The notes under the pieces: model-generated
Databases searched by the model: none
What the model was told of the DNA's origin: nothing
Seen by the model: the letters and a program-made list of their open reading frames with translations, nothing else
Part shown: positions 8,301-57,357 of the stretch, in pieces
How positions within the stretch are numbered: position 1 is the stretch's first letter
Layout of the letters: every line of letters begins with the position of its first letter
Position numbers and translations under genes: made by a program
NCBI GenBank assembly: GCA_008632985.1
Contig: QPGO01000117.1
Location: 186,001-250,000, forward strand
DNA from: Psammoneis japonica
Lineage: Eukaryota
Direction of reading: 5' to 3'
DNA: 64,000 bases

Positions 8301-8416
8301 AATGATGGCACAAGTTGCGCCCTTGGATTCTTGATGACTTCCCAGCCAGCCCTTTTTGACTTTTGTGTTGGGATTTCATGGCTTGCTGACAGGTGTGTGC
8401 TCAGCCTCACCAGCCC

Positions 8417-9800: not shown

Positions 9801-9828
9801 GCCTCATGTCATCATTGCGACCACTGCA

Positions 9829-9930
9829 GCTGTGGCAACAACAATGCAAACAACCAAAATGGCAAGCAGGCAAGACACAGCTGTGGTGACAACAGCACAA
9901 ATGACCAAAATGACAAGTGGGCAAGACACA
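9829..9930. repeat. 51-bp tandem repeat x2
   Basis: gctgtggcaacaacaatgcaaacaaccaaaatggcaagcaggcaagacaca versus gctgtggtgacaacagcacaaatgaccaaaatgacaagtgggcaagacaca. Confidence 0.85.
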
Positions 9931-11944: not shown

Positions 11945-12720
11945 CTAAAGTTTCATGAACATCCACATTTTCTGATTCCTCTTCTGTTTGCAAACCAATG
12001 CAAGTCGTTTCGTTGTCCTCCATCCCTTTGTGTCAATCTCATCGTCTTGGGAGTTGGCCAAAACAGGATCATCCAGAGGATGAACGTGCGCATCTCCATT
12101 GTCGATCGACATCCACTCGTGCTGACACGCTTCTTGCACCACCAATGGGTCCTTTGGATCTGGCCGAAGCCATCTGGTTGCCAAATCCTTGGCCGCCTCC
12201 GAAACATTGGCAAAGGCATCTGGCGCAAACGTCACTTGACCTTTGGTGGCTCCAGCAGTGTCACCGTCAAAAGGAGGAGTGCCACTTGGCAGACACAGAG
12301 AATGACTCCCAATGAAAACATGTCAGCCTTTTTTCCGCACTTCCTCATCCAGCAACTGTGTGATGGCATCACAACACTTTGGGTGCAAAGCACAGTGGCA
12401 TTCCACAAAAGGTCTTCAGGAGGCCCTCATCCTTTTTGGCCAATCTCCACAGTCTGTCAGCTTGATGCCAACACTGCATCAGAGTTGCAATCAATCATTG
12501 GAACATTTTCTGGCTTCAACTCACTGTGAAGGACCTGGCGGTCCTCGCCAAGATGTTGAACAGCACTGAGCAATCGTCTCATGACTCGGCGGCTTTCAAC
12601 TTCAGAGTTCTTGCCTTTGGACACGATCCGATCAAGAAGGTCACCACTGTGCAAAATCTCCATGAACTGTGGGCAAACTGTCATTTGAGGGAAGGGCAAG
12701 AGTCAGTGCTGCCATTGTTT
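11945..12720 (-). pseudogene. CAMK-group Ser/Thr kinase pseudogene
   Basis: GDLLDRIV...LHSELKPENV (HRDLKPEN), LKTFCGMPLCFAPKVL* (TFCGTPxYxAPEVL), VSEAAKDL...DP...HEWM; stops and frameshifts. Confidence 0.8.
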
Positions 12721-14240
12721 CACACATTGCCAACAAAAGATGGCAGGCATGACCAGATGCGTTCCCGCTGCACTCACCAAATGAGAACACTGGGTTTGCT
12801 GCTGCAAAACACACCGTGCCGCTGAAGGCATGATTCAATTCCTGCAACATGGTGGCTTTGGCTTGAAGTGTGGTGAATCCTCAGTCAACAGGGTTTGTTG
12901 TTTGGCTGGAATGCCCTTGACGGCAAACTCTTGTCCCGTGCGACAGCGGTGCATTTGCCAATGTGACGATCTGAATGATTGTGTGTGAAGACGTTGTTGT
13001 CGTCAATGAGCTTGCAACAAAAAGAAAGAAAAGAAAAGGGCTCTTTAGTGTCTTTGCAGAAGCAACATGTCTCCGTGACAAACAGAGAATCAATCACACC
13101 TTTTGGCATTGCAAAGCCAAACCGACAAGATCGGTTCCTGCCACAGCACTCGCATGTTCCTGTGAAACACAACTGTGAAAAGGTGGTGCAAACAAGTGAC
13201 AAAAGAAAATGACATTCGTTTCAATGACTGTGCTGTCAGAGACTCACCTTTGTTGAAATTCTGGAATGAAAGTGGGGTCGCTCACACTTCCTGTCATTGC
13301 TGTTCTGTTGAATCAGAAGAGTTGCATCCATCCATTCTCCATGTCACACCCGATCGTAAAGTGTCTTGGCACTCTTGAGACGCAACATCCTCTTGCAGAT
13401 GACTCGTTTTGAAATCTTCTGGGTGTCCATGATTGAAACAATGAATCTTAGAACAGTTCTGTTGAGTGCTTTGTGTGGAGTAGATCCGACATGGGAAACC
13501 CTGCAGTCCGCACGTGCCCTTCCTGACATTGTGAAAATGTCCCTTTTGCAACGCAGTGAGCAGATTTCCGACTTGCATGCATGCCGATGGGCCATCCTTT
13601 GACTTTGTTCCAATCAGGCGTCTCAGTTCTGCCTCATGAAAGTGCCATTTGGTGATGGCATGTTGTCCAAACGAGTTGCGTGGACATCCGCAAACATCTC
13701 AAAATCATTCGATGAGATTGCCATCAAAAGTTGTGCTTCGGTGCACCCCACCTAATTTGATGACGGCGGACACGATGGCATCAAAAGTGCAACTTTTTGT
13801 GATGATCCTGAGGGTGCGAAAGCGATTTGGTGAGAAACGGCAGGTTGATTTGGTTGTCGCTTGGCGAAGGCTGTGGTGGGAGATGGAAGCTCGGACTTGC
13901 GCGTTGTGAACGCACGTTGAGTCTTACGAATCGTGATCATGACACTTTTTTTTTGTCACGACGATGACGACCGCCATGGTCCATTTGGGCAACGAGGTTA
14001 ATTTTTCTAAAAAAAAACAGCTCCTGCGTGATTTCTACGGCGTCCCCACCCACAGCAGCGAGCACAACGATGCCGTACGCCGTGCGGTACAGTGCGACAC
14101 AACATTCGCAACCGCGCCATTTATTTTTGATCGCAGGATGAGCAACGCGAACCCAATCCAATCCCATCTACGCATTGTCAGACACTGCATCCTTTTGCGA
14201 CTCCTGACAACACTTAGATCACCTTACATGCAATGACGAA

Positions 14241-17017: not shown

Positions 17018-17789
17018 GGCGTTTGCTGTAGTTGCAGTTGTCAGGAAAGAGCGCTCTAAAGGTAGCTTGGATGCACCGGTATGTGATGTGGTGTTGGTAA
17101 GTCACGACTTTAAGTCACACAACACAACATGAGATAAAATGAATGAGGTGGTGATGATGGATGAGGGTGAACAACGGTTATCCGCTTTCGGCCGGGATGC
17201 TTCAGTCGTGTCCCGCCCGCCCGCCCGCCCGCGCCGCACTGCTTTCCGTCCCAGCTTCATGCCACGTGTAAAAATTAACCCCCCGTTTTTAACCAAATAC
17301 CCACCTCGATCGACTAACAGTATCCAGATACGTAGTTCAGCACACTTTTGGGGGCCTAGTAGAATGGGGGTGAACGTTAGTTACTGACCAATCACTGAAT
17401 GTTGACTCTCGCACTTGCCCGTGTGATAAAGGTGCTCCACGAAAAGTTAGTTCTATTTTGAAATACCAGATACCACGAACAATACATACCTATTACATTC
17501 TCGCAAGGCATCTGTTTAAAGAGTATGAGACTGATAATGCTCATATCTTGTGTAATTTGTGGCTCTAGCTGGGGTCAAAGTCTAGCTTATTCTACCAAAA
17601 TTTTGAGTCGAGTGGGTCATACGGGATTGAAAACACGTGACTCGCTGTACGATGAGGTGAAATTGACTCGTTCTCGACACCGAGATTAGATGACAACATC
17701 ATCACAAACCGATTTTATGGCAATGTTCTACTTTCTAATTTGTCTTTGACCTCGTGAAAACTATATCTGACCTCTTTCATGCTATAAAT

Positions 17790-19620
17790 GGGTGAAGCAA
17801 TCCACGAACACTCACTCACAAGCCGCGCACTTTTCCATTTTCAGATTTGACATTTGTGTCTTTGCGATCAAGCATGGGTCCTTCAGGGTTGCAAGCCGGA
17901 AACAAGATGTTGTTGACAGTTTTCCACCAAAAAAGTTGCACATTTCAATGAAGCAAAGAAAACATGGCAGTTCTGCAATGTCCCGTTGACAACAAGCTTG
18001 CTGTTTGCCGCCAGAGTCGTTGTTGCGCGCATTCATCATGACATGGTCGCCCACAAAAAACTCCTTCGGCTCATCGCGCAAAAATTGTGGATGGTGATGA
18101 CGTCGCGAGAAGAGGTTTTGTACACAATGTTGTGGCACAAGTGCACGTGTGATGTCAACACACCACGCCCGCGGCTCCAGGAGTGACCCCTGTTTCACGC
18201 AGTGGCCCACGCCCGGCCGCCCGCCCCCATCCATGTCTGCATGCCTGCATGCTGCATGAAATCAAGTTTCAGTTGCAGAACTTTTGGAGTCATGATTCCA
18301 GCACAACAGCTTTGTGTTCAACAGAGCTGCCACTCTGCAACACCTTTGGTGCCCTCAAAGACCATGTGTTGCCATTGTTGAAAACATCTGTGCAGCACCC
18401 AGCACAAGAGCACACAAAAAGCCTTGCTGCCACACCTCAGCAGCGGGGAGGCAAGAAAAGCTTGTTGCTCAAAGGCAGTGCTGCTGGAGGCTGAAAAGGC
18501 AAAAAAAAACATTTGGTTAACAACAAGAAGAAAAGCTTGAGCATTTTTGTGCAAAGTGTGAGCAAATGAACCACAGGATCATGAAAAAAGGGCCGAGTTA
18601 GCATGCAGTTGAAAAATCAAGAAAACACTGTGCGATTCTTTGTTTTTTCAGGTGAAGTGCCTCCTTTGCAGTGCTGCCTGCAGAGAAACATGCCAGCTGA
18701 TGAGCTCCAAGCTGCCAAAAAGCTTCACCTGACAATGATGATGAAATGTGGTGCCGCTCTGCCACTTGTTCAGCTGTCCACGAGTGATGAAACCCCCAAC
18801 AATCAACAACGATGGAAAGATCTGGCATCTGCACAGCACCACAAGGAGGTGTTTTGTGGTTGATTGTTGAGTTGCTCTGAGATGGAATTCAGGGCAAACT
18901 TGTTCACCAGGATGGGCCAAAATGAACGGAGCACTTTTTGTTGTTGCGCATTCTTGCACAGCGCAAACTCGTGCAGCTCGTGCTTGTCGATTTGGCTGTC
19001 ATGCTGCCCTGAAAGAGACCAAAACACACTGGCCATCACATTGGTTGTTAGAGTTTTGTTTCCCACCAGCACTGAAAATCATGCAGGCATTGTGCAGAAT
19101 TTTTTTGTCATGCTCAACAGGAGGAAACTTTGTCAGCTCTTTTCCCCCCTGTGCCCCCGGCCCACCAGAGTCATGTGTTTTCTGCAAAAAGTTGAAAAAT
19201 GGCAACTCGGGCCTTTTTTCATCCTGCAGTTCACTTTGTCCCTCTCTCCTTTCAACCATTCCTTTTTGAAGCAGCTTGTGTGTGTGTCCAACACACAAAA
19301 TGAGCAGAGAGCAACACCCTTCGAGTGCCGCACCCTGAGCTCGTTGGGGTGCTGACAACTCCTTTCCAAGCCAACCCTCCTGCACCCCTGTGCCATTCTC
19401 TTGGCACACTTGCATTTACAGCCCACAGCCACAAGGGGGAATGCCCATAGCCTGATGCTTTTCCATCCCTCCACTGTTTGCTGCAGTGATTTCGCTGCTC
19501 TGTCACAAATGGTCCGCTTGTCTGGTGAGAGGAGAATGAAGACCCTCGCGACCTCCCACGCGCGATCAAGAAACGAGCACGCGCGCACGCACGCACGCCG
19601 TGCAACGTGACCTTCAACCA
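17790..19620. other. TpA-depleted degenerate block (unidentified repeat or gene relic)
   Basis: Only about 6 TpA in ~1.8 kb by eye; many overlapping C/H/Q/W-rich spurious ORFs; flanks have normal TpA. Confidence 0.75.
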
Positions 19621-23099: not shown

Positions 23100-23977
23100 A
23101 TGCCAACTGATTCAGAATCAAAGCGCTGCCACTTGATGAGCAACACTTGATGAGCAAACAGATGTCATGGTCCATGAGCTTCGCACACTCCTGGCAAGCC
23201 CAAATGAGAACCACCAAGAATGGTTGTGGTGGCTGAGCCACAGAGTGACACAACAGATCACAACTCCAATCAAGTTGCAGTGGCTGTCAATCATGACATT
23301 CACAAAGATGAGAGAAGGCAACATGGTGATGTCGTCAACAGCAAAATTGTGACAGCTTGAGATGATGTGGTTGTTTGAAGGGTGCTTGGACAGTCGTCAG
23401 TGCAAAAACATGCAGAATGTGCAACAATCCCAGCTCTCCTTGCATTTTTCAAAAGCAAAAAGATGATGTTGATTGACATGTCATTTCTCCACACTTGTGT
23501 TGGTGTGGACAAAGGACATGTGCCGGCCGAGACAGAGCGGAGAACACATTGGCCACCTTGCCATCTTTTTGTTTCTGCCAATGTTGGCCAATGCTTGTGT
23601 GGCAAGTTTGGAAAGTGTGAAAGCAAAGCATTTTTTGTGTCATCACCTTGCTCTGCCATGCATTCTTCAGCACAGATCAGAGAGTCTGTGTGCCTCTTCA
23701 CACCGCAGCAGCGGGGTTGTTTCGCACTGCTGCCACACAGAAGCAGCAGACGCAGTTGCGAGCACCTCTCAAGCCACAGCAAGCTCAATCTTTTCTTTTG
23801 ACAACGTTGCATTGCACGTTGATGAGTCGAGAGCAAGTTTTTCGCTTGCAGCCCGTGCCACCCAGCCTTGCGGCTCTCTGGCTGAAGCTCCATTTCCGGG
23901 TTCCCCAGAATTGTTGCGAGCTCCAGCTTGAGGTCTGGTGCTCGTGGCTTGCGCAACACCGCACAGAGAAAAAAACA
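23100..23977. other. TpA-free block directly upstream of alpha-mannosidase copy 1
   Basis: No TpA seen between ~23099 and 23999. Confidence 0.8.
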
Positions 23978-26900
23978 ATGGCGCTGTGGAGGACCGCGGT
24001 AGTTCTTTCATACCTTTATGCAGCAGTACAGGGAAAGTTTAGTGCTAAACAGGACGATAGTGTGCTCAACATTCATTTAGTCCCTCACACACATGACGAT
24101 GTTGGATGGCTCAAGACGGTGGAACAGTATTTTTACGGCCTCAACAGCACCGTCTCGCAAGCCTATGTCAGGTCCATTCTAGACACTGCTATTCAAGAAT
24201 TAACAAAAAATCCCAACCGCACCTTTACCTATGTTGAAATGAAGTTCTTTTCAATGTGGTGGGAATTACAACCGGACTCCATAAAAAAAAAGGTTCGAGA
24301 GTTGGTGAAGAACGGGCAGTTTTCCTTTGCCAATGGGGGGTGGTGCATGCACGACGAAGCCACTACGCATTACATGGGGATGATTGATCAAACAACATTG
24401 GGTCATTCGTTTTTGAAAAAGGAATTAGGCGTTGTTCCTACAGTGGGTTGGCAGTTGGATCCCTTTGGGCATTCTGCAACACAAGCGTCTGTGCTTTCGG
24501 GTCTTGTTGGATTTGATGCATTGTATTTTGGTCGAATCGACTACCAGGACCTGGAATTGAGGAAGAAGACACAGGAATGTGAAGGCTTGTGGTCTTCCTC
24601 GCCCAATTTGAAAGAAACGGTGTTTTGGGGTCTTACCGGCAGCTTTAATGGGAACTATGGTCCGCCAAAAGGTTTTAATTTTGATATCCATAGCTCGGAC
24701 ACGGCACTTGTAGGATTAGGCCATGACCCTCTGAAGCATCGAATCAAGGATTTCTTAAAACAAGTAAAAATACAAAGCGACCGAACCAAGGATAACAACG
24801 TTATGCTGACCATGGGGGAGGACTTTCACTACGAACGAGCTGACAAGAACTTCAACAACATGGACGCACTTATTGACGCGGTTCTGCAGTTCCAGGCATC
24901 TGGAGAGATTGACGTTGCCACCATGTTTGGACCGCGATTCAGCTCCATAAATATTTTTTACTCGAATCCTTCCTACTACACCAAGCAGAAATTTGAATGG
25001 ACGATTCGACAGCGAGCTCTTGGTAATCTGGATGATAACATAGCCGCTGTCAGTGCTGCGTCTCCTTGGTCCGTCAAACGTGACGACTTTTTCCCGTACG
25101 CTGATTGTCCGCATTGCTTTTGGACGGGATACTTCACGTCACGTGCTGGTTTAAAACGTTTGGAACGAATGGCTTCGTCGTTTCTCCAAGCTGCTCGACA
25201 AATCGAGGCCATGCCAGATAGCAATGACTGCGATTGTTGTCGTCCCCTTGCGGAACTCGAAGATGCGATTAGCGTGCTGCAGCATCACGATGGTGTATCT
25301 GGAACGTCGAAACAACATGTTGCCAATGATTATGCCAAGAGGGTGCAATCGGGAATCGACATTGCGTCGAACTATGTGGGAAGCAAGTTGAAGAGATTGC
25401 TTGGCTTGAACGATTCCATTAGTGAGCCAAAATTTTGTCAGTTGTTGAACGAAACAACGTGTGGCGACTTTGAGGTGCGTAGGTTTGCACATTTGTCTTG
25501 GTCTATCATCATCGTCATTTTCTTCTTCGTTCTCACTCAAAGCATCTTATTTCGCCACAACATTGCAGGTGGCAGAAGACGGCACACAACGGGATTTGAT
25601 TGTTGTAGTGTACAACAGCCTCGCGTCATATCGCTCGGAAACCATAGGTATTCCAGTGCCAGTACAAGGCACATACATCGTTTCTTACGCTGTGGAAACG
25701 GGCGCTGAAGACCCAAGGTATATTCAAGTCACAGCGTCGCTAATCCGTAAGGATGATTCAGACTCCTCTGAAAAGCATGTCTTGTTCTTCAACACCGGGC
25801 CGATTGATCCAGTCGGAGCCAAGGCATTCCGAATTCAGTATGTGGGCGGTGTTGAAGACAAGCACCAGTCAACGAACGCAGGCGGTATTCGCAACTCGCG
25901 TGTGACGGCAACAAAGAGACGTGGGGTCGATCATGACTCTCTCTCCTCCGACGGCGACACATTCAGCGCAACCAATGGCATTGTGACTGTATTTTTTGAG
26001 AGGTACGTTCGTTTGCATACATCGAAGACGTCTAAACAAAGTCTCACTTTTGATCATGTTGCTTCTAGATCCACTGGCGCTATTAGAAGCATCGGGTCTG
26101 CCGACGATGGTTATTACCTCAATGTTACCCAGGATTGGGGGTATTATACCGCCTTTGATCCGGCAAACGACAAAACAAATTCTACCGATACCCAGGTTTC
26201 TAGTGCCTACGTTTTTCGACCCTCTACCCCCAAGCAGAAAATGAAGGTGATAAGTCCCCGTCGGCAGGCGGTGGAAGTATACAAAACAAAGGCTGTGACT
26301 GAGGTTCATGTAAAATTTACGCAACCTTGGATTAAGCAAGTGACTAGGCTTCTCCAAGGGCAAGACTATGTCGAAGTCGAATACACAGTTGGACCCGTGC
26401 CAATCGATGACAATGTTGGAAAGGAAGTCTCGACACGCTATTCTACGCCCATTCGGAGCAACAAAATCTTTCACACAGATTCCAATGGAAGAGAGTTTTT
26501 GTTGCGGAAACGGAGTTATCGACCAACATGGGAGCTTGATGAGACTGAGTTTGTTGCAGGAAACTATTATCCTGTCAATGCAGCGACATATATCGAGGAC
26601 GAAGAAAGTTCCTTTTCTGTGGTGGTTGATCGGTCTCAGGGTGGGGCCTCCTTGATCGACGGCGCGATCGAGCTCATGGTGCAACGTCGTACCATTGCCG
26701 ATGACAACAAACATGCGTTGAGGGAACCCATGAACGAGACCGATGGAGGTATCACGCCTTGTCCACCGTACGGTAATGCGACTCGTATTGGACAAGGAGT
26801 GGTAATCAAAGGGAAGCACCGAATCATGATTGGCAAGGGACGGAGCGGTGCCGCGATGGCCCGAGCGCAAATGGACAAGGCGTTTGCCGAACCGATGGTG

Positions 26901-27368
26901 TTCATGTCAACTATACCTCCACAAGCATCTGAATTCTCCGGCTCGAGGTCCTTTTCGGCGTTGCAATCAGCTCTTCCGAAGAATGTCATGCTTGTCACGT
27001 TCTCCCGCCTTCATGATGAGCCACACACAACCTTCTTGGTGAGACTGGGCCATCAATATGGGAGTGACGAAGATGTAGAAATGTCCAAACCCGTTGAAGT
27101 TGATATGAGCGATTTGTTTGCAAACTACACTGTTGTGTCCATAAGGGAGAAAACGCTATCAGGCAATCGCGATTATGCTGAATGGAAGCAGAATCGGTTG
27201 GCTTGGGTGGCCGCACCTGATAATTCGAAGGATGATCAACATGGCTCAACAAGTAGTCGTAACGGTCTCACCATCCAGCTAAAGCCAATGGAGATTCGAA
27301 CCTATGAGGTGCGTGTAGACGAAAGAAGAAATAGTCGTACTGAGCATTTTGACGAAGTTGAAAACTAG
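23978..27368 (+). CDS. GH38 lysosomal-type alpha-mannosidase, copy 1 (exons 23978-25474, 25569-26002, 26069-27368)
   Basis: Signal peptide, HTHDDVGWLKT, WQLDPFGHS, QHHDGVSGT, AGNYYPVN; GT-AG introns of 94 and 66 bp. Confidence 0.93.
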
Positions 27369-27707
27369 AATACGATACAAGCTGGCGTTTTATTGAGGTT
27401 AGATATTAACTCCCTAGAAATGTCTGCGTCTGTAAGAGGCAGACGACCAAATGTTAATGACACTTGTGTTTCAACCTGTGAAATGTCGGAGTCGGACCTC
27501 AAAGTTGTCAAAGGTTAGATGCGAGTGGCGGTCCTATTCACTGGTCAATCACAGCTTCCTTTGACGAAGCTTCCGTCGCTATTTGGGGGGGCGTCTGCGG
27601 TGTCCGGTTTTTCACTTGTCACTTTTGCCCCTTTCTTGACGAGTCTTTGAATGCCCGACGATGTCAAACGAAGCACGTGAAGTGTTCTTGGTTGTCTCCG
27701 GTCTGGT

Positions 27708-28133: not shown

Positions 28134-28191
28134 TGAGCATGTGGAATTGGGATCATTGCATTTTGCCACAGCTGCTCTGTCATCTCACCTC

Positions 28192-28437
28192 CATTGCAAC
28201 TGAACTCAGAATCACCACTTCACCTCCCTTTCCATTTGCCACTTCTGAATCCACACCTGCCATCTCCTGCAATGTCAAACCAAATGATCACACAGGGCAT
28301 TGTCAGTTTTGTTGCATTGCAGCCAAATTCAGAATCACCGCTTCACCCCCCTTTCCGTTTGCCACTTTCTCCATCCACAGCTGTCATCTCCTTCAATGTC
28401 AAACCAAGCAATCACAGGGCAATGTTGGTTTCATTGT
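28192..28437. repeat. ~123-bp tandem duplication near the left end of the block
   Basis: Units start at ~28192 and ~28315 (cattgca...cagaatcacc...caatgtcaaacca...cacagggca); several TG/CA swaps. Confidence 0.75.
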
Positions 28438-31400
28438 GTTGTGTCACTTTTGTGGGAGCTTGTGTTCTGCGTCACCTTGCTCCAGTTTGTCCTGTCCCAT
28501 TCACCCATGTTTGTTTCTGCTCCATCATTGTGCACTTCTCTGCATTGTCAGATTCCCTTTTGTGCAACTCCACCTTTTTGTGATTGTGGTTTGTTTCAAA
28601 TCTTCAACTGCAATCACCAGCCCTCCCCTTTTTGTGTCTTTTTCTCATTTGTGTCTCTGCAACAGTTGTGTTGAATTTGTCTTCATGTGCCAATGTTTCT
28701 TGCATTTGCACTCAGTTTTGAGTTGCTTTCCTTTTTGTTCATGGATGTGAGACATTCAGGCAGCCACAATTGCACTCTCTCATTTGTTTCATTTGTTGCA
28801 TGTGTTTTGTTCAATTTGCCCTGTCATGTGCTGCATTTTCACTTTTGCCCTTTGCATTGTTTCATTTGAATCTTGTTCAGCCATTTCCTGGGCACTGTTT
28901 GTGCACAGAATTCTCTGTGTTTTGTTCAACTGTCTGCACACACTCTCAAATGCTTGCACTGTTTGCGCTGTCATGCTCTTTCGAACACACCTCTGTTCAC
29001 TGCCAATCCTCACTCTGCAGCAAAACTCAGCTCCACAATGCACTGCACATGCTCTGTTGCATTGCTTCTCATCAACCATGGTGCCTCAAAGGGACAATGA
29101 TGCAGAAGCATGCAAGGCAGAACTTGGAGCCACTGAAAACAGCCTCCCAGGTTTGAGCACCACTCAAACAACCAAACAATTCATGGAGCTGTTGTTGACC
29201 CTTGGAATTCACAATCATTTGGCATCACATTTGTTTTAACTAAATTCCTCTCTTCATTGTGTGCTCTTTCCAAAACCATCCTGCACAAGTTCAGAGACAT
29301 CCACTCTCTCACCTTTGCAACCCAGTGAATTTCCCTTTTGGAAGATTGGCCAGAAGATTTGTTGTGATTTCTCATCTTGCACTCTAATTTGTTGTGGGAC
29401 CTTGCAAACCATTCTCCTTGTGTTTCCTTCTGTTTTCCTTTGCCTGTTTTTCTCCTCCATTGGAAATGGAGCAGCAGAGTGAGGGCAGAATGTCTCCCAC
29501 CTGGTGTGACCTCAGCATGTTTGTGGCCAAAGGCAGGTTCCTCTTGGTGCAACACTTCTCATCAACTTTGTCAATGGAAATTTCCAACTTGGATTCATTT
29601 GTGCCATTTCATGTGGGGTTCCACCATTTGACTGAGATGCTTCCTTTGCTGTTTCATTGTGCACAGCCAGACATGTGCCAATGTAAGAACAGACCTGTGC
29701 CACATGTTTGACCCATGGAAAAAGGTCAATGAACGTTTTTGCTGCATTGCCAACACCGGCTGCATTTTTGATTCACTGGCCTGTAAAACATGTGACACAC
29801 ATTCCATCATCAATGCTCCACAAGGTGAGCAACAAGTCCATGCCAGTGATTTCTGTCTGTGTCATGCACAAGCTTGCCATTGCACAAAACAACAATGCAC
29901 AATTGGGGTTGTCAGCTGCATCAGGAACTCCACCAAATTCCTCATGTGCATTTCCTGGGTCTCTGTGATTCTTTCTCACCAAACCATCAAAGTCAGTTGC
30001 TGATGCCGATGTCCACACCTTGTTCAAAAGATCCAGGCTGAGTTTGTCATTTTGTGAAACACCGAGTGCCTCCCACACTTCTGTCATCTCAAACCCCACC
30101 ACTCTCTGTGATGTTTCATCTTTGCCCTCCTGCCTTCTTGACCTTGTGCATGCTTGCAAACACTCAATGGTGAATTTGCCATTTTTGAAACAAAGCAAAC
30201 TTCCTCCTCCAACAAAGTTTCCACCACATGCTTGGAAAGCAAATGAGCAGATGGCCATTTCTTGCCTTCCTGCTTTGGTCCACAAAGAGCGTGCACAAAA
30301 GGACCAAACATCCACTCGTTGCCTTGGTGGGCCGCCTGAAGCTGTTGTGAACAGTGGCTGTGGTTTGGCACAGGGTGCATCTTTTTAGACATGGTGCAGA
30401 CAAACTTGGGCAATGCTTGCATTCCAACATCCTGCACATGCATGCCAGACATGGTCACATGTCCGGAATTGTCAGTCCATTGCTTTTCCCAACTTGTCAC
30501 CAGATGGACTGTGGAAAGATGGAAAATCAATCACCAATGGATTTGCACCAATTTGACCAATTGATGGCACTTGGGTGCTGTTGCTTTGTTTCAGTGGGCT
30601 GGTGTTTGCAAGTGGAAAAACAACATCAGACAGATTTTGACAATCAATGACTTCTGTCCCATCATTGCACATCAGAGATGAGTGTGTGTCCATTTCTCTC
30701 AGAAGCAATGCATCAGTGCTGACATGTGCATGGCTCAACTTTGGCAAAAGAGCATCAGCGCTGATTGACCACATTTTAAAATGCTTTGCAGTTGGCAGCA
30801 GCCATGAAACAACAGCACCAATGTTTTGCTGTCATCCGAAAGCACTCTTGTTGGTTGACAGCATTCTTGCTGTGGACACAGGCCTGTTTTCTCACTTGCC
30901 AATTGCATGGTTGCACATTCACAAAGTTTCAAAACATTTGGGAAACTGACAACAAATCAACAACCAATTGTTTGATTTTTTGCATCATGTTGGTGCAAAT
31001 GTCTTTGTGTTTGGAACACATTTTTTTTGTCATGCAATGACACAACCAATGCTGTGTGAGTGCAAACACAAAATGACGCCACCAGACCTTGTTCAAAAAT
31101 GGCCTTTCCAAACACATGTGATCATCACCTGTCAATGCAACACCAGTCGATGCAACACATTCTTGTGGCAGAATTGACCACAATGCTCACTTGCAAGTCA
31201 AGATGTGTGTCTGTGAATGCAGAGCTTCATGTGTGCCCATGCACTGCAGAGGGGTGCATTGCAAGCATGCACCATCATTCAAAAAACAAGCTGCACAAAG
31301 TCCAGCAGGAGGCAATGAAGGAACACATGGTGGTGACATCAGCTTGGAGCATTCTTGCGAGTTGCTTTTCAATCCCCATTTGTTGGGAAATTCTGTGTGT

Positions 31401-33699
31401 GATCTTGGTGGTGGTGTGGGAGGATTTGCAGTTGTGGCCAATTGCCTTTGCCTGTGGTGCACAGCCACAAACATGGAATTGGATCTAGAGCATCATGAAC
31501 TCACCAAAACACTTGTTGAGTTGGTCACAAAAAAGTTGAATGTGGTCCAACCTTGTTCCATGCATCATTTCTTGATGACGACAATTCTGTTCTGGATGTT
31601 CTCAAGCAAGAAAGCCCAAAATTGTTCTCAAACAATCACAGTGGAACAATGATTGACAAGCACAACACTCAGCAGTGTTTGGAGAAAAAGTTGACAGATG
31701 TTTGAGTGCAAGGAATTGTCCTGACAGCACTGGCATGGTCATGAGGGGACACTCACATTGCTGGAATTGCAAAGCCTTCAAGGCAAGTGCATGTGACAAT
31801 GATTTGACTTGGTGCAGTGACAGCATGTCCTCTCACAAGAGATTCACAAGTGCACCAAATTGTCAATGGCGGGTGACTCAGTGTCCAAACACATGCAAAG
31901 GCTAGAACCTGTGGCAATTGACTGCATTTTCTGCCCACAATGACATGCTCTGGTGTCATTTTTCAATGGACACATTGGTCTTTGCAAAGCAAACTGCACC
32001 TTGTGCAATTTTCTTGTTGGTGGTTTTTAACTGATTTGAGTGGGTTTTCCGTTCCTGCAATTGAAAATGTTGCACAGCAGAACAAAATGCATCATTTCAC
32101 ATTTGAAGGACAGCACAGACTGAACAACAATGTCAACTGTTGCATTCTGCAGCAAGAAAACAGCATCAAAAATCAATGAAATTTTTGAGTGGATGGTTGA
32201 TTCTCTTGCAATTAAAGAGAGATTGCATGGCAGAACAAAATGAGTCACACAGATTCAACCACATTGTTGAGCTGTTGCATTCTGCAACAGGCAAACAGCA
32301 TCAAAAATCAATGATCAGTGTGCAAGTAAAAAAAAATTACACAAATTCAAGTGTTTCTGACAAAAATGTTAAAAACAATCAGATGTTGGAAAATCAGTGA
32401 GACAAACTCATCACCAAGCGATTCTTGTCTGTCTTCATCATGCAGGTTGTTGGGTCAAGAACCTTCAGACTCTGCAATTGCATCCCCATTGCTTTGGTGC
32501 TCAATGTTTGCATTGACTTTGCAGTGCATCCCCTCACCCAACCATGATGTTTGATCATTTGTCAATCGCGTCTGAAGAATGCCCGGACAGAAACTGGTGG
32601 GAGACCATTTTGATGGAAGCTGCAGACAAAGCATCAACTGGGATGTGCATCATCTCCAATTGTTTTGTTGAAAGGAAACCATCTTTGGCTGCCACAAAGT
32701 TGGTGATCCAACATTGCTGCAAATGTTGCCAGAAGAACAAACATGCTTCTTCTGTCAGTGGAGCCACCCTGTGCATTTTGTGAAAACAGTGTTGGGTTGT
32801 TGCCAAGCCCATCTGAAGCTGAGATGCTTGGAAAGAAAAATGGCACATGTGTGGGTGGGTTTGTTTTGGGACATGTTAACACATGGCATTGTGTCACCTT
32901 TGGTGATGAATCCTTTCTGCAAGGAGCAAAAAAAAGCCACAAAAGAAACCTGCACAGTGAAAAAATGTGGAAGGACACTTTTTGGTTGTTGCTCATGAGT
33001 CTGTCAGGTCATTTTGACTTGCCTGAAAGATGCAAAATGTGTGGTGGACTGCATGATCCACTGAGCAGCATTGAGTTGATGTTGGCCAGATCCAAGTGTG
33101 GATTTTTTGTGAGCAAGTTGATGACAAGGCAGCAGTTCTTTGAAAAGTGGCAGCAAAGCTGAAGATCTTGCAATGACTCAAGCAAAGAAAGACATGCTTT
33201 GTGTGGACTTGTGTCCATTTGCAATGGAACATGTGCTTTGTTCTCCCAGCAAAGACATGACATCATTGTCCCAGAATGAGGAAACCATTCAAATGCTTGG
33301 AACTTTCTGGGACCTTTGCAGCCAGGAAATCATGTCATGCCATGTTCCAGCAGAAGTTGTCATTGTGGGATTCATGCCAAAGGATCTTTTGGGGGAGCTC
33401 CATTTGAGAGTGGCCATGCAGAATGGACTTTGCCACTCCTGGTGCTGCATTGTGTCTGACCATGAAATTAAGAAGCTTTGGTGGTCTGAAGCACATGCTG
33501 AACTTGCTGAAAACACTCCAGGACAAGGCTGCAGATGGAATGGATCAACCACCAGTTGGAAAAGAACATTGGTTGCATGGTTGCTCAGTCCAAAGCAGCA
33601 CAGACACAATTCTGTTGATGAGCACTCCATGGCCACAATGCAGTGGGAAAAGTGTGGTGGCACCAATCAACTTAGAATCACTGGACATTGTGTTTGAGA

Positions 33700-36400
33700 A
33701 CAACAGAAACAGAGAGAAAGAGAAAAATGATCTGCCAAATAAAAAGGACCAGCCACTCATTAAAAGTCAATTGTGCACCCATGCATCCTCTAGATCAAAA
33801 CATTCCATCACATCCAGACCAATTTTCATCCACTTGACACTGGGCAGAACAACCAAAATGTGTGCAGCTGCATCTTCATTGTCAGTGAATTTGTCAGTCA
33901 CTCTCTCCATTGGTGGAAGGATGCAAGCAACAGACTGAACCATGCCAACAGGCATCACATGCACTGCTTTTTTGATGGTGTCCCCCTTGAAAAAGGGTGA
34001 GTCAGGCTTCGGATCTGCACTGGACATTGACTGGATGGCACACTCTGAAACACTGGAGCTGGTGCACAGGTTCTTAACTGTTGCCCAAAGCAGTGCTCTG
34101 GCCACATGATTGCAAACACATTGCCCGGTTGACCAGTGGATCATTGCCCAGTCATGCCACTGACTTCTCTCCCATGGGTGGGAGCAGGAATTGGGATGAC
34201 ATCGCATGATGGCTCTGTCATGAGATGACGATGACTCCATGTTGTCACCCATGAGAGAATCACTGCCAACAGAGTTTCTTGCATCTGTCTTTGGAGTGTC
34301 ACACACCCAAAGTGGAAATCAACATGGTTGGCTTGGAATCCTGCATGTTCTGATGCCCATTGACTCCCATGAGAGCCATCGACAAATGGGCAGGAGGGTG
34401 CACCTGGCTGCTTCCCATTGAGCAAAGTTTCTCAGTGTGAGGAAGACCAACTTGTCTGGCAGAGGAGTTGAGAGGTGCATCTCTTGCCAAACAATGCATG
34501 ACAGAGCTGTGGGGTTGACACCCAGTTGCAAGATCCTTTGGCTCCCCCTTGTTGTTTTTCTCCTTGGAGGAGGGGGTTGATGTGGAAGGACTGTTGTCCG
34601 CTTTGAGATGACCAATGCCCACAAGATGGTCATGGGAGGCTTGACAAACATGACCCTCATGTTGGTGTGTCATGAGGTCAAGAATGAGACAATCCTGTCC
34701 ATGACTGGTTTTTTGAATGATTGTTTGACCATGCTCTTTAAAAAGGACTCACAGAAACCACCAAAGAAATTGCTGGTGGTGCCGTGCCATTTGATGCACC
34801 AAACCATGTGCTTCAAATCATGAGTTTTGAGCATTTGGAGACCAGATTGAGACACAGCCTCTTAACATGGTCCAACCACAGCAAAACAAATGCAAAGGAA
34901 CTTGACTGTGCACTTGTCCTCTGACCATTGCAGGAAAGTGGTGCAATGCAACACATTGTTGCTGAGTGCAGCATCCAACGCTAGTGACACAAATGTCAAC
35001 AAGGCAAAATTTCTTTCCACTGCAAACAAATCAGGACTGTTGATGGGGAAAGCATGCCTTTCATGGCTGCCAAGGTGATGAGGCACAAACTGGGGTGCTC
35101 TTGACTGGACAAACAAGTTTGGTCAGTGACTCCATTCTTGAATGGTGCTCTTGGCATCTCACGGTCACTTTGACATTTGAGTGCTCTTGCAGCCACTTGG
35201 AATCTTTTTCAAACTCAGATTTGTCAAACAACTCAGGGAGGCTGTTGAAATCAACACTGGGTTTGTTGGCACAGTCTCCTTCATCCAGTGAAAATGAACC
35301 ATCAGTTGTTTCTTTTTCACTGGATTTTTCCATTGCATTTGATGAAAGTTGGCTGATGCCTTCTTCTGATGCCCATGCAACAGCGACACCAGTTCATCAA
35401 CTGGGGGGTGGCAAGCAACAAAAGTTAAAAAGGATCCACAACAAGTGCTCCACAATTCCAAGGCAGAACAAATGCAGCATTTCTCATGGCAGCATGCCAA
35501 ATGTGCCTTGTGCATTGCCACCTTGAGGAATTTCCCAAAAAGAAGGTCAGACAAGGTGCAGGAGACATGCCTGGCAGATTCTTCAGTGGCTGTCACTTTG
35601 CCATGTTCTTGTTGTTCCACAACCTTGACTGCATCCTCCACTGTCTCTGAAATCTCAGCTTGTCAGACAAAATTACAATCACAGGTGGGGTCATCCCCAA
35701 ACCTTTGGGGAATGTCACAATCCATCCAGGAGATGTTGGAGGAATGAGAGTTGTGGTGGCATTGCATGTCATTGTGGCCTTTGGTGTCACCTGTTGTCAT
35801 GCACAAACAAAGGTGCAAATGGACAAACACTGCAGTCATCACCAAGATCAACGGGGTTTCCCCCTTTCAGCAATGCAAGGGCTTTGGCTTCTTCAAAAAT
35901 GAAACGCAGACAATCATGGCAGAGCTGGATGCAGCTCTCCTGGGATTTGACTGTGTTTCTGTCCTCTGACCTTTCATTGGAAGATTTGGGTGAGTTGGGA
36001 TCATGCCAAGGATGAACCAACTCTTGGCAAGATGACACAAGTGATTGTTGATGTTTGACATTGCCAAAGGAGCTGAGAACAGGCTGGACAACTGGTCCTC
36101 TGATTTGGTGCACAAAGTGGAGTCATCAAAGGCAACAATGGGCATGACAAAGTGAAGTCTGGGAAGATGGTTTGCACCAAGTTCTTCCAAATCTTGTTGA
36201 AGGTGCAGCTCAGTTTCTTTCCACCAATCACCACTTTTCAGTGGTCCAAACATGCAATCATTGAGATCTTCTTTGCTGTGCTTGTCCTGGTGCATCCACA
36301 TGACATCTTTTTGAAACTGTGGCTCTTGGAGGAGATGATGTGTGTTGTGAAGAAGTGAAAAATGGTGGACACACGTGGGAGGAAATTTGGGTCCCAAGAC
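33700..36400 (-). pseudogene. Plavaka-type transposase relic
   Basis: SGDWWKETE...MPIVAFDDSTLC, QPVLSSFGNV, WFILGMIP, GDTKGHNDMQCH...DCDIP, CQSDREMPRAPFKNGVTD, HMVWCIKWHGTTSNFFGGFCES occur in the expected order across frames. Confidence 0.65.
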
Positions 36401-38219
36401 AAGGGTGTCATGGAGAGGAGGTGGACCGGCACAAGGGAGATGCTTCTTCTTATTTGCCTTGTGGCAGTGGCGTGTGATGGCACCTCAGAAAAATCACACT
36501 GAGAAAGACAGGAATTGTGGCAGAAGGACATGACATCTTGGCAAAGGTGCACTTGAAGATGGCTCTTCCTCATCATGACAACAAGATCCTCTTCAACTGG
36601 ATGAATCTTCTCAGTTGCTGCATCAATTGCAGGAGAAACACTGTTTTGGAAGATGGATGAGGAAAAATCAGTCACACCAGGGTTGGTGAAGGCAAAAGAA
36701 CCATCTGAGGACAAGCTGGATCTGTCATCTTTGTCATCAATGCCTGGAGGAAACAAGGGCGGTGCTTCAAAGTTTTCTTGCATGAGCCCAACCTGACAAA
36801 ACCAATGAAGCAAGGATTCATCAGAGGCTGCAGCAGATTGAGTGGGGAGACTTTGTTCATCAGAAGAGCAATTGACACAACATCTTGGCTGCAAGGATGG
36901 CAAAAAAAAATCAGGAGGAGCAACAATCTGCAGGCCTTCATCACCATCATGAGCTGCTGTGTCATCAACAAGAATGGACAACACATCAGTGGAATCAAAG
37001 AAGGAGGATTCCATGGGAAAGTCAAAGGATTCAGCATCACAGGAGATGCCAGTTTAAGCATCAACCAACAAAGAGGTGGTGCCAGCTGAAGAAATGTTGT
37101 CAGCAGAGAGGCTGTCCATTGTGATGGAATCATCTGGCTGGTGGTGGGGTGGGTTCACGGCAAGGTGGGGAGGAGTCCTCTCCACAGGGAAACAAGATGT
37201 CATTGTCAGAGTCTGCAAGATTGCAAGAAGGACTCTTGATCAAATGTCATTGAGGGAGCTCCTGGAAGCAAATGCAGCAGACAAGCATTTGGCATTGGGG
37301 CACTTGTGATCCGCTGTTGCCAACCAAAGAAAAGGGCAAGGGAAAGCAATGCAACACACAAAGGAAGAAATGACAGTGGACAAGAACAAGAAAAACGGCC
37401 AACAACTGGGTGGCAGAACAGGAGAGAGGTGCAAAGCAGATGGGGATGGATGGAGAAGGAAGGAAAACAAAGAAGTGAGGGAAAAAACAATGCCAGCAGG
37501 GGAACAATCAACAAACAGTTGTGCAATCCCTGTCACAGTCCAAAATGCATGTGTCAAAATGTTCACATTGTTTTGCACATGGTGCAACAAATCTGTCTGG
37601 ATCAAACAAACACTGCAATGACAAAATGACAAATTGGTTTGTCAATCAAGTTCCAGTTTGCAAGAATTCAATTGAGTGTTGAAAAGGGGTTGCACTGCAA
37701 AGGGAAAATGTTTTGCAGATGATGGGCAGAGACCCCTCCTTTGGTGCTGGAGCAATGGGGTGCAGCAGCTGCAATGTGCTGAGCCAAGGAAAAGGAGCAA
37801 ACACAGTTGGCTGAGCCTTCCAGCACATTGTTGGCAACAGCTGCCATCATCACATCATCCAGCGCAAAGGCCACAGAGCTGAGGTCAGTTGAACTCTGTT
37901 CTTCCACCAGTGGGGGGGGGAGTGGTGTCATCATGTGGGGTTTGCTGCAGCTGGCGAGATCGCCTGCCAGGCCAAAGTTGTCATGCCCCATCCCATGGCT
38001 GTGGGGTGGACCCACCACTGTGTGATGCTTGCTGCAGCTGCGCTGCTCCAACTCCCAGCACATCAGAGCCACGCAGCAGCACGACAGGCAAAGCATTGTC
38101 ATCAGGCAGTGAGCCATGTGCTGGCAGCTGCTGTGGTGACAGACGCAGCCATTTCTCCCAATGTGGTTGACCTGCACTGGGTTGGCAGCCATGTAAAGCC
38201 CCTCATCACCTCTCTCACT

Positions 38220-38243
38220 TGTGTGTGTGTGTGTGTGTGTGTG
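38220..38243. repeat. (TG)12 microsatellite
   Basis: Direct reading. Confidence 0.95.
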
Positions 38244-38436
38244 CCCTTGGCACGGGTCCTTTTTCAACAGCTGTGAGGCAGCAGGTGGTTGATCATGTGT
38301 ACAGCACAACAGCCACTCTAAAAAGGTGCTTTTTTATGGAAAAACGTGAAATTGTCTTCTGGCAAAAAAAAAAAGCAATCTCTCCAAATCTGATGATTCA
38401 TCAAGATCAACACCCTAGCTCTAGAGGTAATAGAAA

Positions 38437-41400
38437 ATGGCGTTGCTGTGGCGAACTTCAGCAGTTGTTCTTTCGCTCCTCTTTGCAGCAGTACAGGGAA
38501 AGTTTAGTGCTAAACAGGACGATAGTGTGCTCAACATTCATTTAGTCCCTCACACACATGACGATGTTGGATGGCTCAAGACGGTGGAACAGTATTTTTA
38601 CGGCCTCAACAGCACCGTCTCGCAAGCCTATGTCAGGTCCATTCTAGACACTGCTATTCAAGAATTAACAAAAAATCCCAACCGCACCTTTACCTATGTT
38701 GAAATGAAGTTCTTTTCAATGTGGTGGGAATTACAACCGGACTCCATAAAAAAAAAGGTTCGAGAGTTGGTGAAGAACGGGCAGTTTTCCTTTGCCAATG
38801 GGGGGTGGTGCATGCACGACGAAGCCACTACGCATTACATGGGGATGATTGATCAAACAACATTGGGTCATTCGTTTTTGAAAAAGGAATTAGGCGTTGT
38901 TCCTACAGTGGGTTGGCAGTTGGATCCCTTTGGGCATTCTGCAACACAAGCGTCTGTGCTTTCGGGTCTTGTTGGATTTGATGCATTGTATTTTGGTCGA
39001 ATCGACTACCAGGACCTGGAATTGAGGAAGAAGACACAGGAATGTGAAGGCTTGTGGTCTTCCTCGCCCAATTTGAAAGAAACGGTGTTTTGGGGTCTTA
39101 CCGGCAGCTTTAATGGGAACTATGGTCCGCCAAAAGGTTTTAATTTTGATATCCATAGCTCGGACACGGCACTTGTAGGATTAGGCCATGACCCTCTGAA
39201 GCATCGAATCAAGGATTTCTTAAAACAAGTAAAAATACAAAGCGACCGAACCAAGGATAACAACGTTATGCTGACCATGGGGGAGGACTTTCACTACGAA
39301 CGAGCTGACAAGAACTTCAACAACATGGACGCACTTATTGACGCGGTTCTGCAGTTCCAGGCATCTGGAGAGATTGACGTTGCCACCATGTTTGGACCGC
39401 GATTCAGCTCCATAAATATTTTTTACTCGAATCCTTCCTACTACACCAAGCAGAAATTTGAATGGACGATTCGACAGCGAGCTCTTGGTCATCAGGATGA
39501 TAACATAGCCGCTGTCAGTGCTGCGTCTCCTTGGTCCGTCAAACGTGACGACTTTTTCCCGTACGCTGATTGTCCGCATTGCTTTTGGACGGGATACTTC
39601 ACGTCACGTGCTGGTTTAAAACGTTTGGAACGAATGGCTTCGTCGTTTCTCCAAGCTGCTCGACAAATCGAGGCCATGCCAGATAGCAATGACTGCGATT
39701 GTTGTCGTCCCCTTGCGGAACTCGAAGATGCGATTAGCGTGCTGCAGCATCACGATGGTGTATCTGGAACGTCGAAACAACATGTTGCCAATGATTATGC
39801 CAAGAGGGTGCAATCGGGAATCGACATTGCGTCGAACTATGTGGGAAGCAAGTTGAAGAGATTGCTTGGCTTGAACGATTCCATTAGTGAGCCAAAATTT
39901 TGTCAGTTGTTGAACGAAACAACGTGTGGCGACTTTGAGGTGCGTAGGTTTGCACATTTGTCTTGGTCTATCATCATCGTCATTTTCTTCTTCGTTCTCA
40001 CTCAAAGCATCTTATTTCGCCACAACATTGCAGGTGGCAGAAGACGGCACACAACGGGATTTGATTGTTGTAGTGTACAACAGCCTCGCGTCATATCGCT
40101 CGGAAACCATAGGTATTCCAGTGCCAGTACAAGGCACATACATCGTTTCTTACGCTGTGGAAACGGGCGCTGAAGACCCAAGGTATATTCAAGTCACAGC
40201 GTCGCTAATCCGTAAGGATGATTCAGACTCCTCTGAAAAGCATGTCTTGTTCTTCAACACCGGGCCGATTGATCCAGTCGGAGCCAAGGCTTTCCGAATT
40301 CACTATATGGGTGGTGTCGACGACAAACACCAGTCAACGAATGCAGGCGGTATTCGCAACTCGCGTGTGACGGCAACAAAGAGACGTGGGGTCGATCATA
40401 ACTTTCTCTCCTCCTTTGACGACACATTCAGTGCAACCAATGGCATTCTTACTGTAAATTTTGACAGGTACGTTCTTTTTGAATTCATTGTAAACAATCG
40501 AAACAAAGTCTCACTTTTGATCATGTTTCTTCTAGATCCACTGGCGCTTTAAGAAACATCGGGTATGCTAACGATGGGTTTTACCTCAATGTTACCCAGG
40601 ATTGGGGATATTATACCGCCTTTGATCCAGCAAACGACAAAACAAATTCAACAGATACTCAGGCGTCAGGCGCCTATATTTTTCGACCCTCGACCCCCAA
40701 GCAGAAAATGAAGGTAATAAGTCCTCGTCGGAAGGGGGTGGAAGTATACAAAACAAAGGCTGTGACTGAGATTCATGTAAAATTTGCGCAACCTTGGATA
40801 AAGCAAGTGACTAGGCTTCTCCAGGGGCAAGACTATATCGAAGTCGAATACACAGTTGGACCCGTGCCAATCGATGACAATGTTGGAAAGGAAATCTCGT
40901 TGCGTTATTCTACGCCCATTCGAAGCAAAAAAATCTTTCACACAGATTCCAATGGAAGAGAGTTTTTGTTGAGGAAACGGAGTCATCGACCAACATGGGA
41001 GCTTAACGAGACTGAGTTTGTTGCAGGAAACTATTATCCTGTCAACGCAGCAACCTACATTGAGGACGAAGAAAGTTCCTTTTCCGTCGTGGTTGATCGG
41101 TCTCAGGGTGGGGCATCCTTGATTGACGGCACGATCGAGCTCATGGTGCAACGTCGTACTGTCGTTGATGACAACCGTGGAGTTGGCGAACCCATGAATG
41201 AGACTGACGGAGGTATCACGCCTTGTAGACCGTTCGGCAATGCTACTCGTGTCGGACAAGGAGTAGTAATCAAAGGGAAGCACCGAATTATGATTGGAAA
41301 GGGACGCAGCGGTGCAGCACAGGCACGCGCTCAGATGGACAAGGCGTTTGCCGAACCGATGGTGTTCATGTCGACTATACCTTCACAAGCACCTACTACT

Positions 41401-41838
41401 TTCTCCAGTTCGATATCCTTTTCGGCATTGCAATCAGCTCTTCCGAAGAATGTCATGCTTGTCACGTTCTCCCGCCTGCACGATGAGCCCAAGAAAACCT
41501 TCTTGGTGAGACTTGGCCATCAATACGGAAGTGGCGAAGATGCAGAAATGTCCAAACCCGTTGAAGTTGATATGAGCAATTTGTTTGCAAACTACACTGT
41601 TGTGTCCATAAGGGAGAAAACGCTATCAGGCAATCGCGATTATGCTGAATGGAAGCAGAATCGGTTGGCTTGGGTCGCGGCACGTGATAAACTTAGGGGA
41701 GAGTTGCATGGCCCATCAGGCAGCAAAGTCCTCACCATCCAGCTAAAGCCAATGGAGATTCGAACATACGAGGTGCGTGTAGACGAAGGAAGATATACCG
41801 GTAGCTATTCCGAGCATGTCGACGAAGTTGAAAAATAG
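38437..41838 (+). CDS. GH38 alpha-mannosidase, copy 2 (exons 38437-39939, 40034-40467, 40536-41838)
   Basis: Paralog of copy 1 at an offset of 14465 bp; same motifs; introns of 94 and 68 bp. Confidence 0.93.
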
Positions 41839-42119
41839 AGGAAGGAGAAAGCTGACGATTCAAAACAGTTTTAACTCGCTTTTAATGTCCGCATCTCCGA
41901 CCAGACGTCAATATGATTCTAGAGCCCAAAATCCATCCAAAATGCGGCTGCTATTGGTTACGACCGCGTTGGACCTCCTTGGTAAATTTGGGTAGCTTAC
42001 TTCTTCATAAATAAGTGAGTCACATAGAACGTCAAAGAGCAACAAATTCCCTTGTATGGAAAAGGTGACACCGAAGAAATCGTTCATGCTAGGGCCCTAG
42101 CTCGTTGCGGTGGGCACTC

Positions 42120-57176: not shown

Positions 57177-57357
57177 GTTTGGTACAGTAAATAGAGCTAC
57201 TCTAGAGTTGGTCGTTGGTCGTTGGTCGACAGTCGAGTGTCGACGAAGTCACGATGCGCGCTCATCTGCCCGCCTGTTCCAATCCACGCTAAATTTCCGC
57301 AGCAGTAGATCTATCCATGCAGCACTGAACATGAACACATGCGTGGGGGCCCATGTA

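Follow-up and report, generated by a model that had tools for sequence, protein, structure and literature searches.

In Neurospora and other fungi, repeat-induced point mutation (RIP) kills mobile DNA by region-targeted transition hypermutation while sparing genes, with a dinucleotide preference and sharp borders. RIP changes CpA to TpA, which raises the TpA content, and it requires duplicated DNA. For natural, region-chosen rewriting of A:T to G:C, a literature search on the signature, its enzyme and diatom mutation spectra, in which subscription journals were thinly covered, returned a single printed precedent, a preprint on the alga Bigelowiella natans (Mettrop et al., bioRxiv 10.64898/2026.01.13.699255). 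According to the available text of that preprint, giant-virus and virophage DNA integrated in the B. natans genome undergoes A:T to G:C hypermutation restricted to TpA. In mutation accumulation lines, two integrated viral regions acquired 231 de novo mutations, of which 230 were A>G or T>C, all at TpA, and the regional mutation rate was raised by orders of magnitude. Clusters poor in TpA and rich in CpA and TpG elsewhere in that genome bear transposon-type domains, and an ADAT2-like adenine deaminase is proposed, not shown, as the enzyme. Here we analyze a 64,000-nucleotide stretch of the diatom Psammoneis japonica (the window; assembly GCA_008632985.1, contig QPGO01000117.1, positions 186,001 to 250,000 of the forward strand, numbered here from 1). 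Its largest converted block is the subject of this work:

28134..38300, no strand assigned: largest converted block; silent and decayed, its TpA and CpG almost entirely replaced by TpG/CpA, with 29 surviving TpA

We read this block as dead, probably transposon-derived DNA that has been run near completion by a region-targeted, strand-symmetric TpA to TpG/CpA process in which the outer base next to each TpA sets the rate, and we give this reading a probability of about 0.7. The process is a barely described kind of targeted hypermutation with a graded trinucleotide rule, TAT > TAC > TAG > TAA. As far as the available preprint text goes, the diatom and B. natans systems both change only TpA and yield TpG or CpA by strand. 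Both are limited to particular foreign or silent regions; the rest of the B. natans genome mutates normally and the genes in our window are likewise spared. The two differ in extent, for the nucleocytoplasmic large DNA virus (NCLDV) region of B. natans is far from saturated, with a TpA relative abundance (rho) of 0.45 as compared with 0.04 in the block. No CpG loss is reported there, whereas the block has a CG rho of 0.10. The data differ as well, since mutation accumulation lines of another alga are compared here with assembled sequence only.

Loss of TpA and the surviving sites

The window was surveyed segment by segment for the rho of TA and CG. Over its 10167 bases the block retains 29 TA (rho 0.04) and 52 CG (rho 0.10), and contains 1186 TG (rho 1.84) and 1184 CA (rho 1.91). 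In a flank sample beside the block the rho values of TA and CG are 0.54 and 1.00. TpA is 13-fold rarer in the block than in the flanks, and CpA is enriched. The unconverted part of the window (35433 bases) contains 1264 TA, and at that density the block would have 363, which bears out the initial annotation, where about 28 had been counted in 10.2 kb and several hundred expected. Among the NA dinucleotides only TA is depleted (AA rho 1.24, CA 1.91, GA 0.96), and TT, with a rho of 1.21, is as free of depletion as AA. The balance between TG and CA holds in each of ten bins of about 1 kb, which rules out a strand or replication asymmetry of the conversion. Along the block, the plus-strand purine fraction shows a steady climb, from 0.37 on the left to 0.59 on the right. 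This gradient is ancestral because transitions leave the purine content unchanged.

Then, which sites escape? Grouped in strand-symmetric classes (Y, pyrimidine; R, purine), the 29 survivors comprise 13 TTAA, four CTAG, four CTAA/TTAG, six GTAA/TTAC and two ATAA/TTAT. No survivor is found in ATAT, ATAC/GTAT or GTAC, which are all RTAY, nor in CTAC/GTAG or ATAG/CTAT. YTAR accounts for 21 of the 29, RTAY for none, and tetramers containing ATA or TAT for two, as compared with 16.8%, 29.7% and 49% of the 1264 unconverted TA (P 5.5e-11, 3.6e-5 and 1.2e-6, respectively). TTAA makes up 4.4% of the same background (P 7e-11). The earlier tally of about 21 YTAR, made up of 13 TTAA, 4 CTAG and 4 CTAA/TTAG, with ATA/TAT nearly absent, proved exact.

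The expectation was drawn from four stand-in backgrounds, namely all unconverted DNA, long open reading frame (ORF) DNA, unconverted DNA outside ORFs, and the block's own flanks around TA, TG and CA. The last three contain 14.8%, 20.5% and 22.5% YTAR, and the excess among the survivors has P values of 5e-12, 2.6e-9 and 1.5e-8 against them. The bias toward YTAR exceeds chance and holds whichever stand-in is used; in the window, the residual NTAN frequencies depart from background proportions, with P values for YTAR from 5e-12 to 1.5e-8 over the four. Further converted DNA in the window provided a replicate set:

7800..14000 (7800-11600 and 11801-14000), no strand assigned: further converted DNA, TA rho 0.05-0.07

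17801..19600, no strand assigned: converted block, TA rho 0.05, CG rho 0.52

23101..24000, no strand assigned: converted block, TA-free from 23097 to 24000, adjoining the start of the first copy of an alpha-mannosidase gene described below

57301..58300, no strand assigned: converted block, TA-free from 57356 to 58320

The bias is replicated there. With the Copia element of the window left aside, the other converted blocks retain 31 TA, of which 15 are YTAR (P 4.6e-5) and one is RTAY (P 2.5e-4). The interior of the Copia element (996-7511) is less completely converted; it retains 48 TA and shows a weaker bias, with 15 YTAR and 8 RTAY. The 52 surviving CpG of the block have no flank bias (chi2 13.4, 9 df, P 0.14), so the survivor bias is specific to TpA. 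The absence of a flank preference at CpG fits a separate process for CpG loss.

It could be argued that the survivors are not resistant, and that they arose afresh when TG, CA or other dinucleotides mutated at a later time, or reflect an odd ancestral sequence. The expected counts rest on stand-ins for the ancestral sequence of the block, and its 2370 TG and CA are abundant enough for reverse transitions to create TAs. However, TAs derived from TG and CA would be 22.5% YTAR and 7.4% TTAA, whereas 72% and 45% are seen (P 1.5e-8 and 4.2e-8). The same bias recurs in other blocks of different origin, and it is present at tyrosine codons, described below, whose ancestral TA is known from homologues. 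Even a steady state enriched in YTAR would still require context-dependent removal. We consider this origin of the survivors highly improbable.

Flanking bases and conversion rate

To describe the rates we used an additive two-strand hazard model, in which each strand of a site has a hazard determined by the base immediately 3' of the A, and the total for the site is the sum over both strands. The fitted hazards for A, G, C and T at the 3' position are 0.12, 1.23, 2.38 and 3.49 in the block and 0.55, 0.83, 1.68 and 2.55 in the replicate blocks, so that the order T > C > G > A is identical in the two. The additive model is better than a uniform rate in both (block, likelihood-ratio chi2 65, P 4e-14; replicate, P 5e-6), and its goodness of fit gives P 0.09 and 0.23, respectively. 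The pooled relative rates are 1 for TAT, 0.67 for TAC, 0.34 for TAG and 0.10 for TAA, and the pooled ratio of the TAR rate to the TAY rate is 0.25 (95% confidence interval 0.18-0.34).

The initial annotation had stated that TAY is hit and YTAR is spared. The first half stands, as TAY is the faster context and TAR is about four times slower. The split into pyrimidine and purine is too coarse, as a fit with four rates is superior to one with two (P 2e-4). The rate of TAA is about one third that of TAG (P 6e-4), and TAT and TAC differ only weakly (P 0.02). The spared class is mainly TTAA. YTAR is not immune either, as 3 of 4 YTAR sites are converted in a pair of repeat copies described below, and one TTAG is converted in both long terminal repeats (LTRs) of the Copia element, to TG in one and to CA in the other.

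Several points weigh against this description. The additive fit is only fair, with four CTAG in the block where 1.3 are fitted and four CTAA where 7.6 are fitted. The very low TAA rate hinges on the assumed density of TTAA, and more generally the expected counts come from stand-in DNA in place of the ancestral sequence. All results in this work are read from one 64-kb window.

The palindromic classes suggest a different explanation, in which the whole duplex site (TTAA, CTAG and other YTAR) is protected, for instance by protein binding, base modification or local helix shape, and the direction of conversion is random. Among the three classes with the strongest enrichment, two are indeed palindromic, TTAA with 13 sites and CTAG with four, the latter above the additive fit. 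On the other hand, the half-site model with additive hazards needs no palindrome term to fit, and we know of no modification at YTAR. The two explanations differ in what they predict for the direction of change, which is taken up in the next section; there we return to the protected site after the direction counts.

Conversion in place and its direction

Three pairs of related sequences within the window allow converted DNA to be compared with a partner:

720..7787, plus strand: Copia retrotransposon (RVT_2 E 1.3e-20), with LTRs at 720-995 and 7512-7787, 276 bases each and 93% identical

17224..17993, plus strand: unconverted copy of a short (0.6-kb) repeat, 70% identical to its inverted, converted partner at 10538-11328

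28178..28444, plus strand: local tandem duplication within the block, 28192-28309 against 28315-28431, 82% identity

At four places a TG of one LTR faces a CA of the other, and five more mismatched columns are unpaired transitions. A TATA in one LTR corresponds to TGTG in the other. Because the LTRs of one Copia element differ in this way, the conversion took place in place, after insertion. RNA-level editing before reverse transcription is excluded as a general cause by the same difference between the LTRs of a single insertion, and by the conversion of non-retroelement DNA with sharp borders. The repeat pair shows TA changed to TG or CA: 27 TA are listed in the unconverted copy, and the only one kept in the partner is the TTAA at 17517. 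The tandem copies within the block are discordant, TG against CA, at several matching places, the signature left when one ancestral TA or CG is converted in place, independently in each copy.

The Copia element has lost most of its TpA and retained its CpG (rho 0.85-0.97), and TA loss therefore runs ahead of CpG loss. Its family is very high-copy, with a contig word depth of about 60000-140000 as compared with about 63-70 for adjacent single-copy DNA (run X1). In this comparison 15296 contig pieces were placed on the window and 1085 places differed; by kind, the differences were 209 A>G, 256 T>C, 225 C>T and 206 G>A, with 18-28 for each transversion. At 12741-12751 and 13210-13231, contigs of the same sample show CA where the window has TG, the neighboring changes T>C and G>A occurring together. 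These contigs appear to be other copies of a repeat that were converted independently and in the opposite direction.

Tyrosine codons offer a test of retention in DNA whose ancestral state is indicated by protein homology. A tblastn comparison with 60 Copia polyprotein homologues, which are at most 62% identical and so yield ancestral tyrosine positions and no ancestral DNA, identified 54 codons with Tyr in at least 60% of the covering homologues. These codons now read Cys (TGY) in 28 cases, His (CAY) in 14, Tyr in 6, Phe in 5 and Trp in one; the five TTC and one TGG codons were excluded from the retention and direction counts. Sorted by the base in front of the codon, 3 of 7 still have their TA after T, 2 of 19 after C and 1 of 22 after a purine (T versus purine, Fisher P 0.034). 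This is the order that the model predicts, and it requires no background assumption. The coding composition of the Copia element is GC-rich and confounds an analysis of tetramer excess within it.

Which of the two base pairs of a TpA is changed? The survivors alone cannot separate a hit on the A of T-A-Y from a hit on the A of R-T-A, because both rules spare exactly YTAR, an ambiguity that the initial annotation had overlooked. The mixed sites can: the TAY rule predicts that YTAY becomes YTGY and RTAR becomes RCAR, and the mirror rule predicts the reverse. Tyrosine codons preceded by a pyrimidine (YTAY) changed to TG in 16 cases and to CA in 5 (two-sided P 0.027). With a purine in front (RTAY), TAY is presented on both strands, and these codons gave 12 TG and 9 CA, as the rule predicts. 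The events that follow or oppose the TAY rule number 4:3 in the LTR pair and 4:4 in the repeat pair. Pooled over the YTAY tyrosine codons and both pairs, 24 of 36 events follow the TAY rule, which is compatible with the predicted 0.75 (P 0.25). The same pooled events reject the mirror rule with P 2e-7.

A second measure is the ratio of YTGY to RTGR, taken on both strands. Unconverted DNA has a value of 1.07; the block reaches 1.30 and the other blocks 1.25. When the fitted model was applied to unconverted DNA in a simulation with symmetric 90% CpG decay, the TAY rule gave 1.28 (1.08-1.49), random direction 1.04 (0.90-1.21) and the mirror rule 0.85 (0.73-1.00).

The evidence on direction is not all on one side. 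The direct events by themselves do not reject a random direction (24/36, two-sided P 0.065), the LTR and repeat pairs together stand at 8:7, and the contrast between YTAY and RTAY tyrosine codons is not significant (Fisher P 0.33). The YTGY excess is missing in the Copia element at 2101-7000 (0.84, contrary to the prediction), at 11801-14000 (1.09) and at 57301-58300 (1.02). Resamples of 10 kb from unconverted DNA span 0.86-1.29, which places the 1.30 of the block just at the edge, and the test presumes that CpG decay is symmetric.

These are also the observations that favor protection of the whole duplex site with random direction, that is, the 8:7 count, a pooled count that does not reject 0.5, and the three converted segments without a YTGY excess. 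Against them stand the difference between 16:5 at YTAY and 12:9 at RTAY tyrosine codons, and the ratios of 1.30 and 1.25, which fall outside the range simulated for random direction. We regard protection of the whole site as quite unlikely. For direction, the nearest-neighbor (TAY) rule is likely and is favored, not proven. The statement of the initial annotation that the target is T-A-Y can accordingly be upheld against the mirror rule, and only in part against random direction.

A change of T-A-Y to T-G-Y on one strand is a change of R-T-A to R-C-A on the other, and the sequence cannot tell which base was hit. A lesion on the paired T of 5'-R-T-A-3', such as an oxidized or modified T that mispairs with G, would therefore leave an identical footprint, and on this point the sequence cannot decide. 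Error-prone repair synthesis in silent chromatin by DNA polymerase eta (Pol eta), whose preference for TA was pointed out in the initial annotation, could be proposed on similar grounds. However, the WA motif of Pol eta includes AA as well as TA, and AA/TT are undepleted in the block. A near-total loss at one dinucleotide would also be hard to obtain from a polymerase error spectrum. An error spectrum of the Pol eta type is an unlikely cause, and we give the two origins together, T lesion and repair synthesis, only a small chance of being right. Adenine deamination in 5'-T-A-Y-3' would be the simplest reading.

Borders, neighbors and proposed mechanism

The window is a mosaic of about 35 kb with TA rho 0.4-0.7 and CG rho about 1, and ten segments of 0.6-10.3 kb with TA rho 0.00-0.14. 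Its genes are long and nearly intron-free, and encode a 7tm_3 receptor, eIF3g, armadillo and ankyrin proteins, and two copies of a GH38 alpha-mannosidase that flank the block:

23977..27369, plus strand: GH38 alpha-mannosidase copy 1, left neighbor of the block, unconverted; Glyco_hydro_38N E 1e-67, TA rho about 0.5-0.6

38436..41839, plus strand: GH38 alpha-mannosidase copy 2, right neighbor of the block, unconverted; 94% identity to copy 1 across 3411 columns

The left border of the block is abrupt, with the final upstream TA at 28116 and the first TA within the block at 29237. Toward the right, TAs stand at 38194 and 38300 and are dense thereafter, so that the block ends about 140-240 bases upstream of the ATG of mannosidase copy 2 at 38437. 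Converted blocks in general stop about 100-250 bases short of adjacent genes, and TA is at normal levels in the two GH38 genes that flank the block. Because the borders are sharp and lie at this distance from genes, the layout suggests that chromatin state, and not sequence, guides the targeting.

The GH38 pair is a tandem duplication with detectable homology from the start-codon region to near the stop and with unrelated flanks, and each copy is broken into two or three ORFs by frameshifts or introns. The regions upstream of the two copies could not be used as a converted and unconverted pair, as the homology starts only at 23977/38436. At the end of the window, an ORF contains a tandem pair of 73-base copies (63456-63606) that share 92% identity and lie 78 bases apart.

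What the block once encoded is only hinted at. Rfam and tRNA scans returned no family and no tRNA in the block, and a Pfam search of 20 stop-to-stop ORFs returned just two weak matches, a chance-level TPR and a sub-threshold Plavaka:

35867..36484, minus strand: weak relic of a Plavaka-type DNA transposase (PF18759, E 1.3e-4, 21.8 bits, under the curated cut-off of 26.3), a hint only

No match above cut-off was found by Pfam in 13 ORFs from the other converted blocks. Converted DNA in the window thus includes the Copia element and this weak relic. Long stop-to-stop ORFs of at least 90 amino acids are nevertheless plentiful, with 53 of them overlapping 28000-38400 in all six frames; converted DNA is rich in such spurious ORFs because the TAA and TAG stops are gone.

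How could such a pattern arise? In the mechanism that we propose, each TpA would offer two mutable base pairs, with the rate of each pair governed mainly by the adjacent outer base. With two additive hazards per site, RTAY would be converted first, mixed sites next and TTAA last, and a TpA loss of about 92% would leave mostly YTAR survivors, nearly half of them TTAA. CpG decay to TpG/CpA would be superimposed on the TpA conversion. The chemical step may be adenine deamination in the T-A-Y context by a chromatin-guided DNA deaminase. The full proposal, that a stramenopile alga possesses a chromatin-guided DNA base editor that acts on silent DNA, reads 5'-T-A-Y-3' (TAT > TAC > TAG > TAA) and turns A:T into G:C on both strands until TTAA-like sites remain, is tentative, and we would sooner expect it to need revision than to hold in all its parts.

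The flank rule has practical uses whichever base is hit. As a quantitative fingerprint, it allows candidate enzymes to be tested on simple oligonucleotides, and it allows the diatom process to be compared with the Bigelowiella process. It aids the detection and dating of converted DNA because TTAA persists longest. Converted DNA also poses hazards for annotation, as its spurious long ORFs are a trap for gene callers and its tyrosine codons are read as Cys or His.

Comparison with known systems

In fungal RIP, as in the process that shaped the block, region-targeted transition hypermutation proceeds with a dinucleotide preference and sharp borders. The direction is opposite, as RIP creates TpA whereas the process in the block erases it and enriches CpA. 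RIP acts on duplicates, whereas the converted DNA at 8594-11389 is spanned by contigs at single-copy depth (63-70) with 0-2 differences; it may, however, have been repeated at the time of conversion.

The adenosine deaminases of RNA provide a second comparison. TadA acts on the U-A-C-G loop of tRNA-Arg, and ADAT2/3 acts on U33-A34-N35, where it edits A34 if the next base is G, A or C. A 3' purine is preferred by ADAR and in fungal mRNA editing. The block resembles the substrates of TadA and ADAT in having T (U in RNA) directly 5' of the target A, with only TA depleted among NA dinucleotides, and TAC, the context of TadA, is a good target in it. On the other hand, the best target in the block is TAT, which is absent from the natural A34 substrates of TadA and ADAT2/3; we know of no AUN anticodon with A34 among them. 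TAG and TAA are the poorest targets in the block, though ADAT2/3 edits them in several tRNAs and ADAR and fungal mRNA editing favor the purine. The substrate also differs, being chromosomal DNA on both strands in place of RNA. The 3' profile T > C > G > A matches none of the adenosine deaminases compared here (TadA, ADAT2/3 and ADAR). Pol eta, with a WA motif that covers TA and AA, differs in the AA/TT that the block has kept. Of the two enzymes named in the initial annotation, TadA and Pol eta, neither suits the profile well.

The closest relative of the process remains that of B. natans. In the available text of the preprint (10.64898/2026.01.13.699255), the words context, trinucleotide, tetranucleotide, flanking and TTAA have 0 occurrences and no flanking-base analysis is given; relative to that text, the flank rule is new. 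If the 231 mutations of B. natans share the 3'-base order of the block, distant algal lineages would have a single natural A-to-G DNA editor, or a single class of such editors, in common. Such a shared algal editor, if true, would amount to a second RIP-like genome defense with the opposite chemistry.

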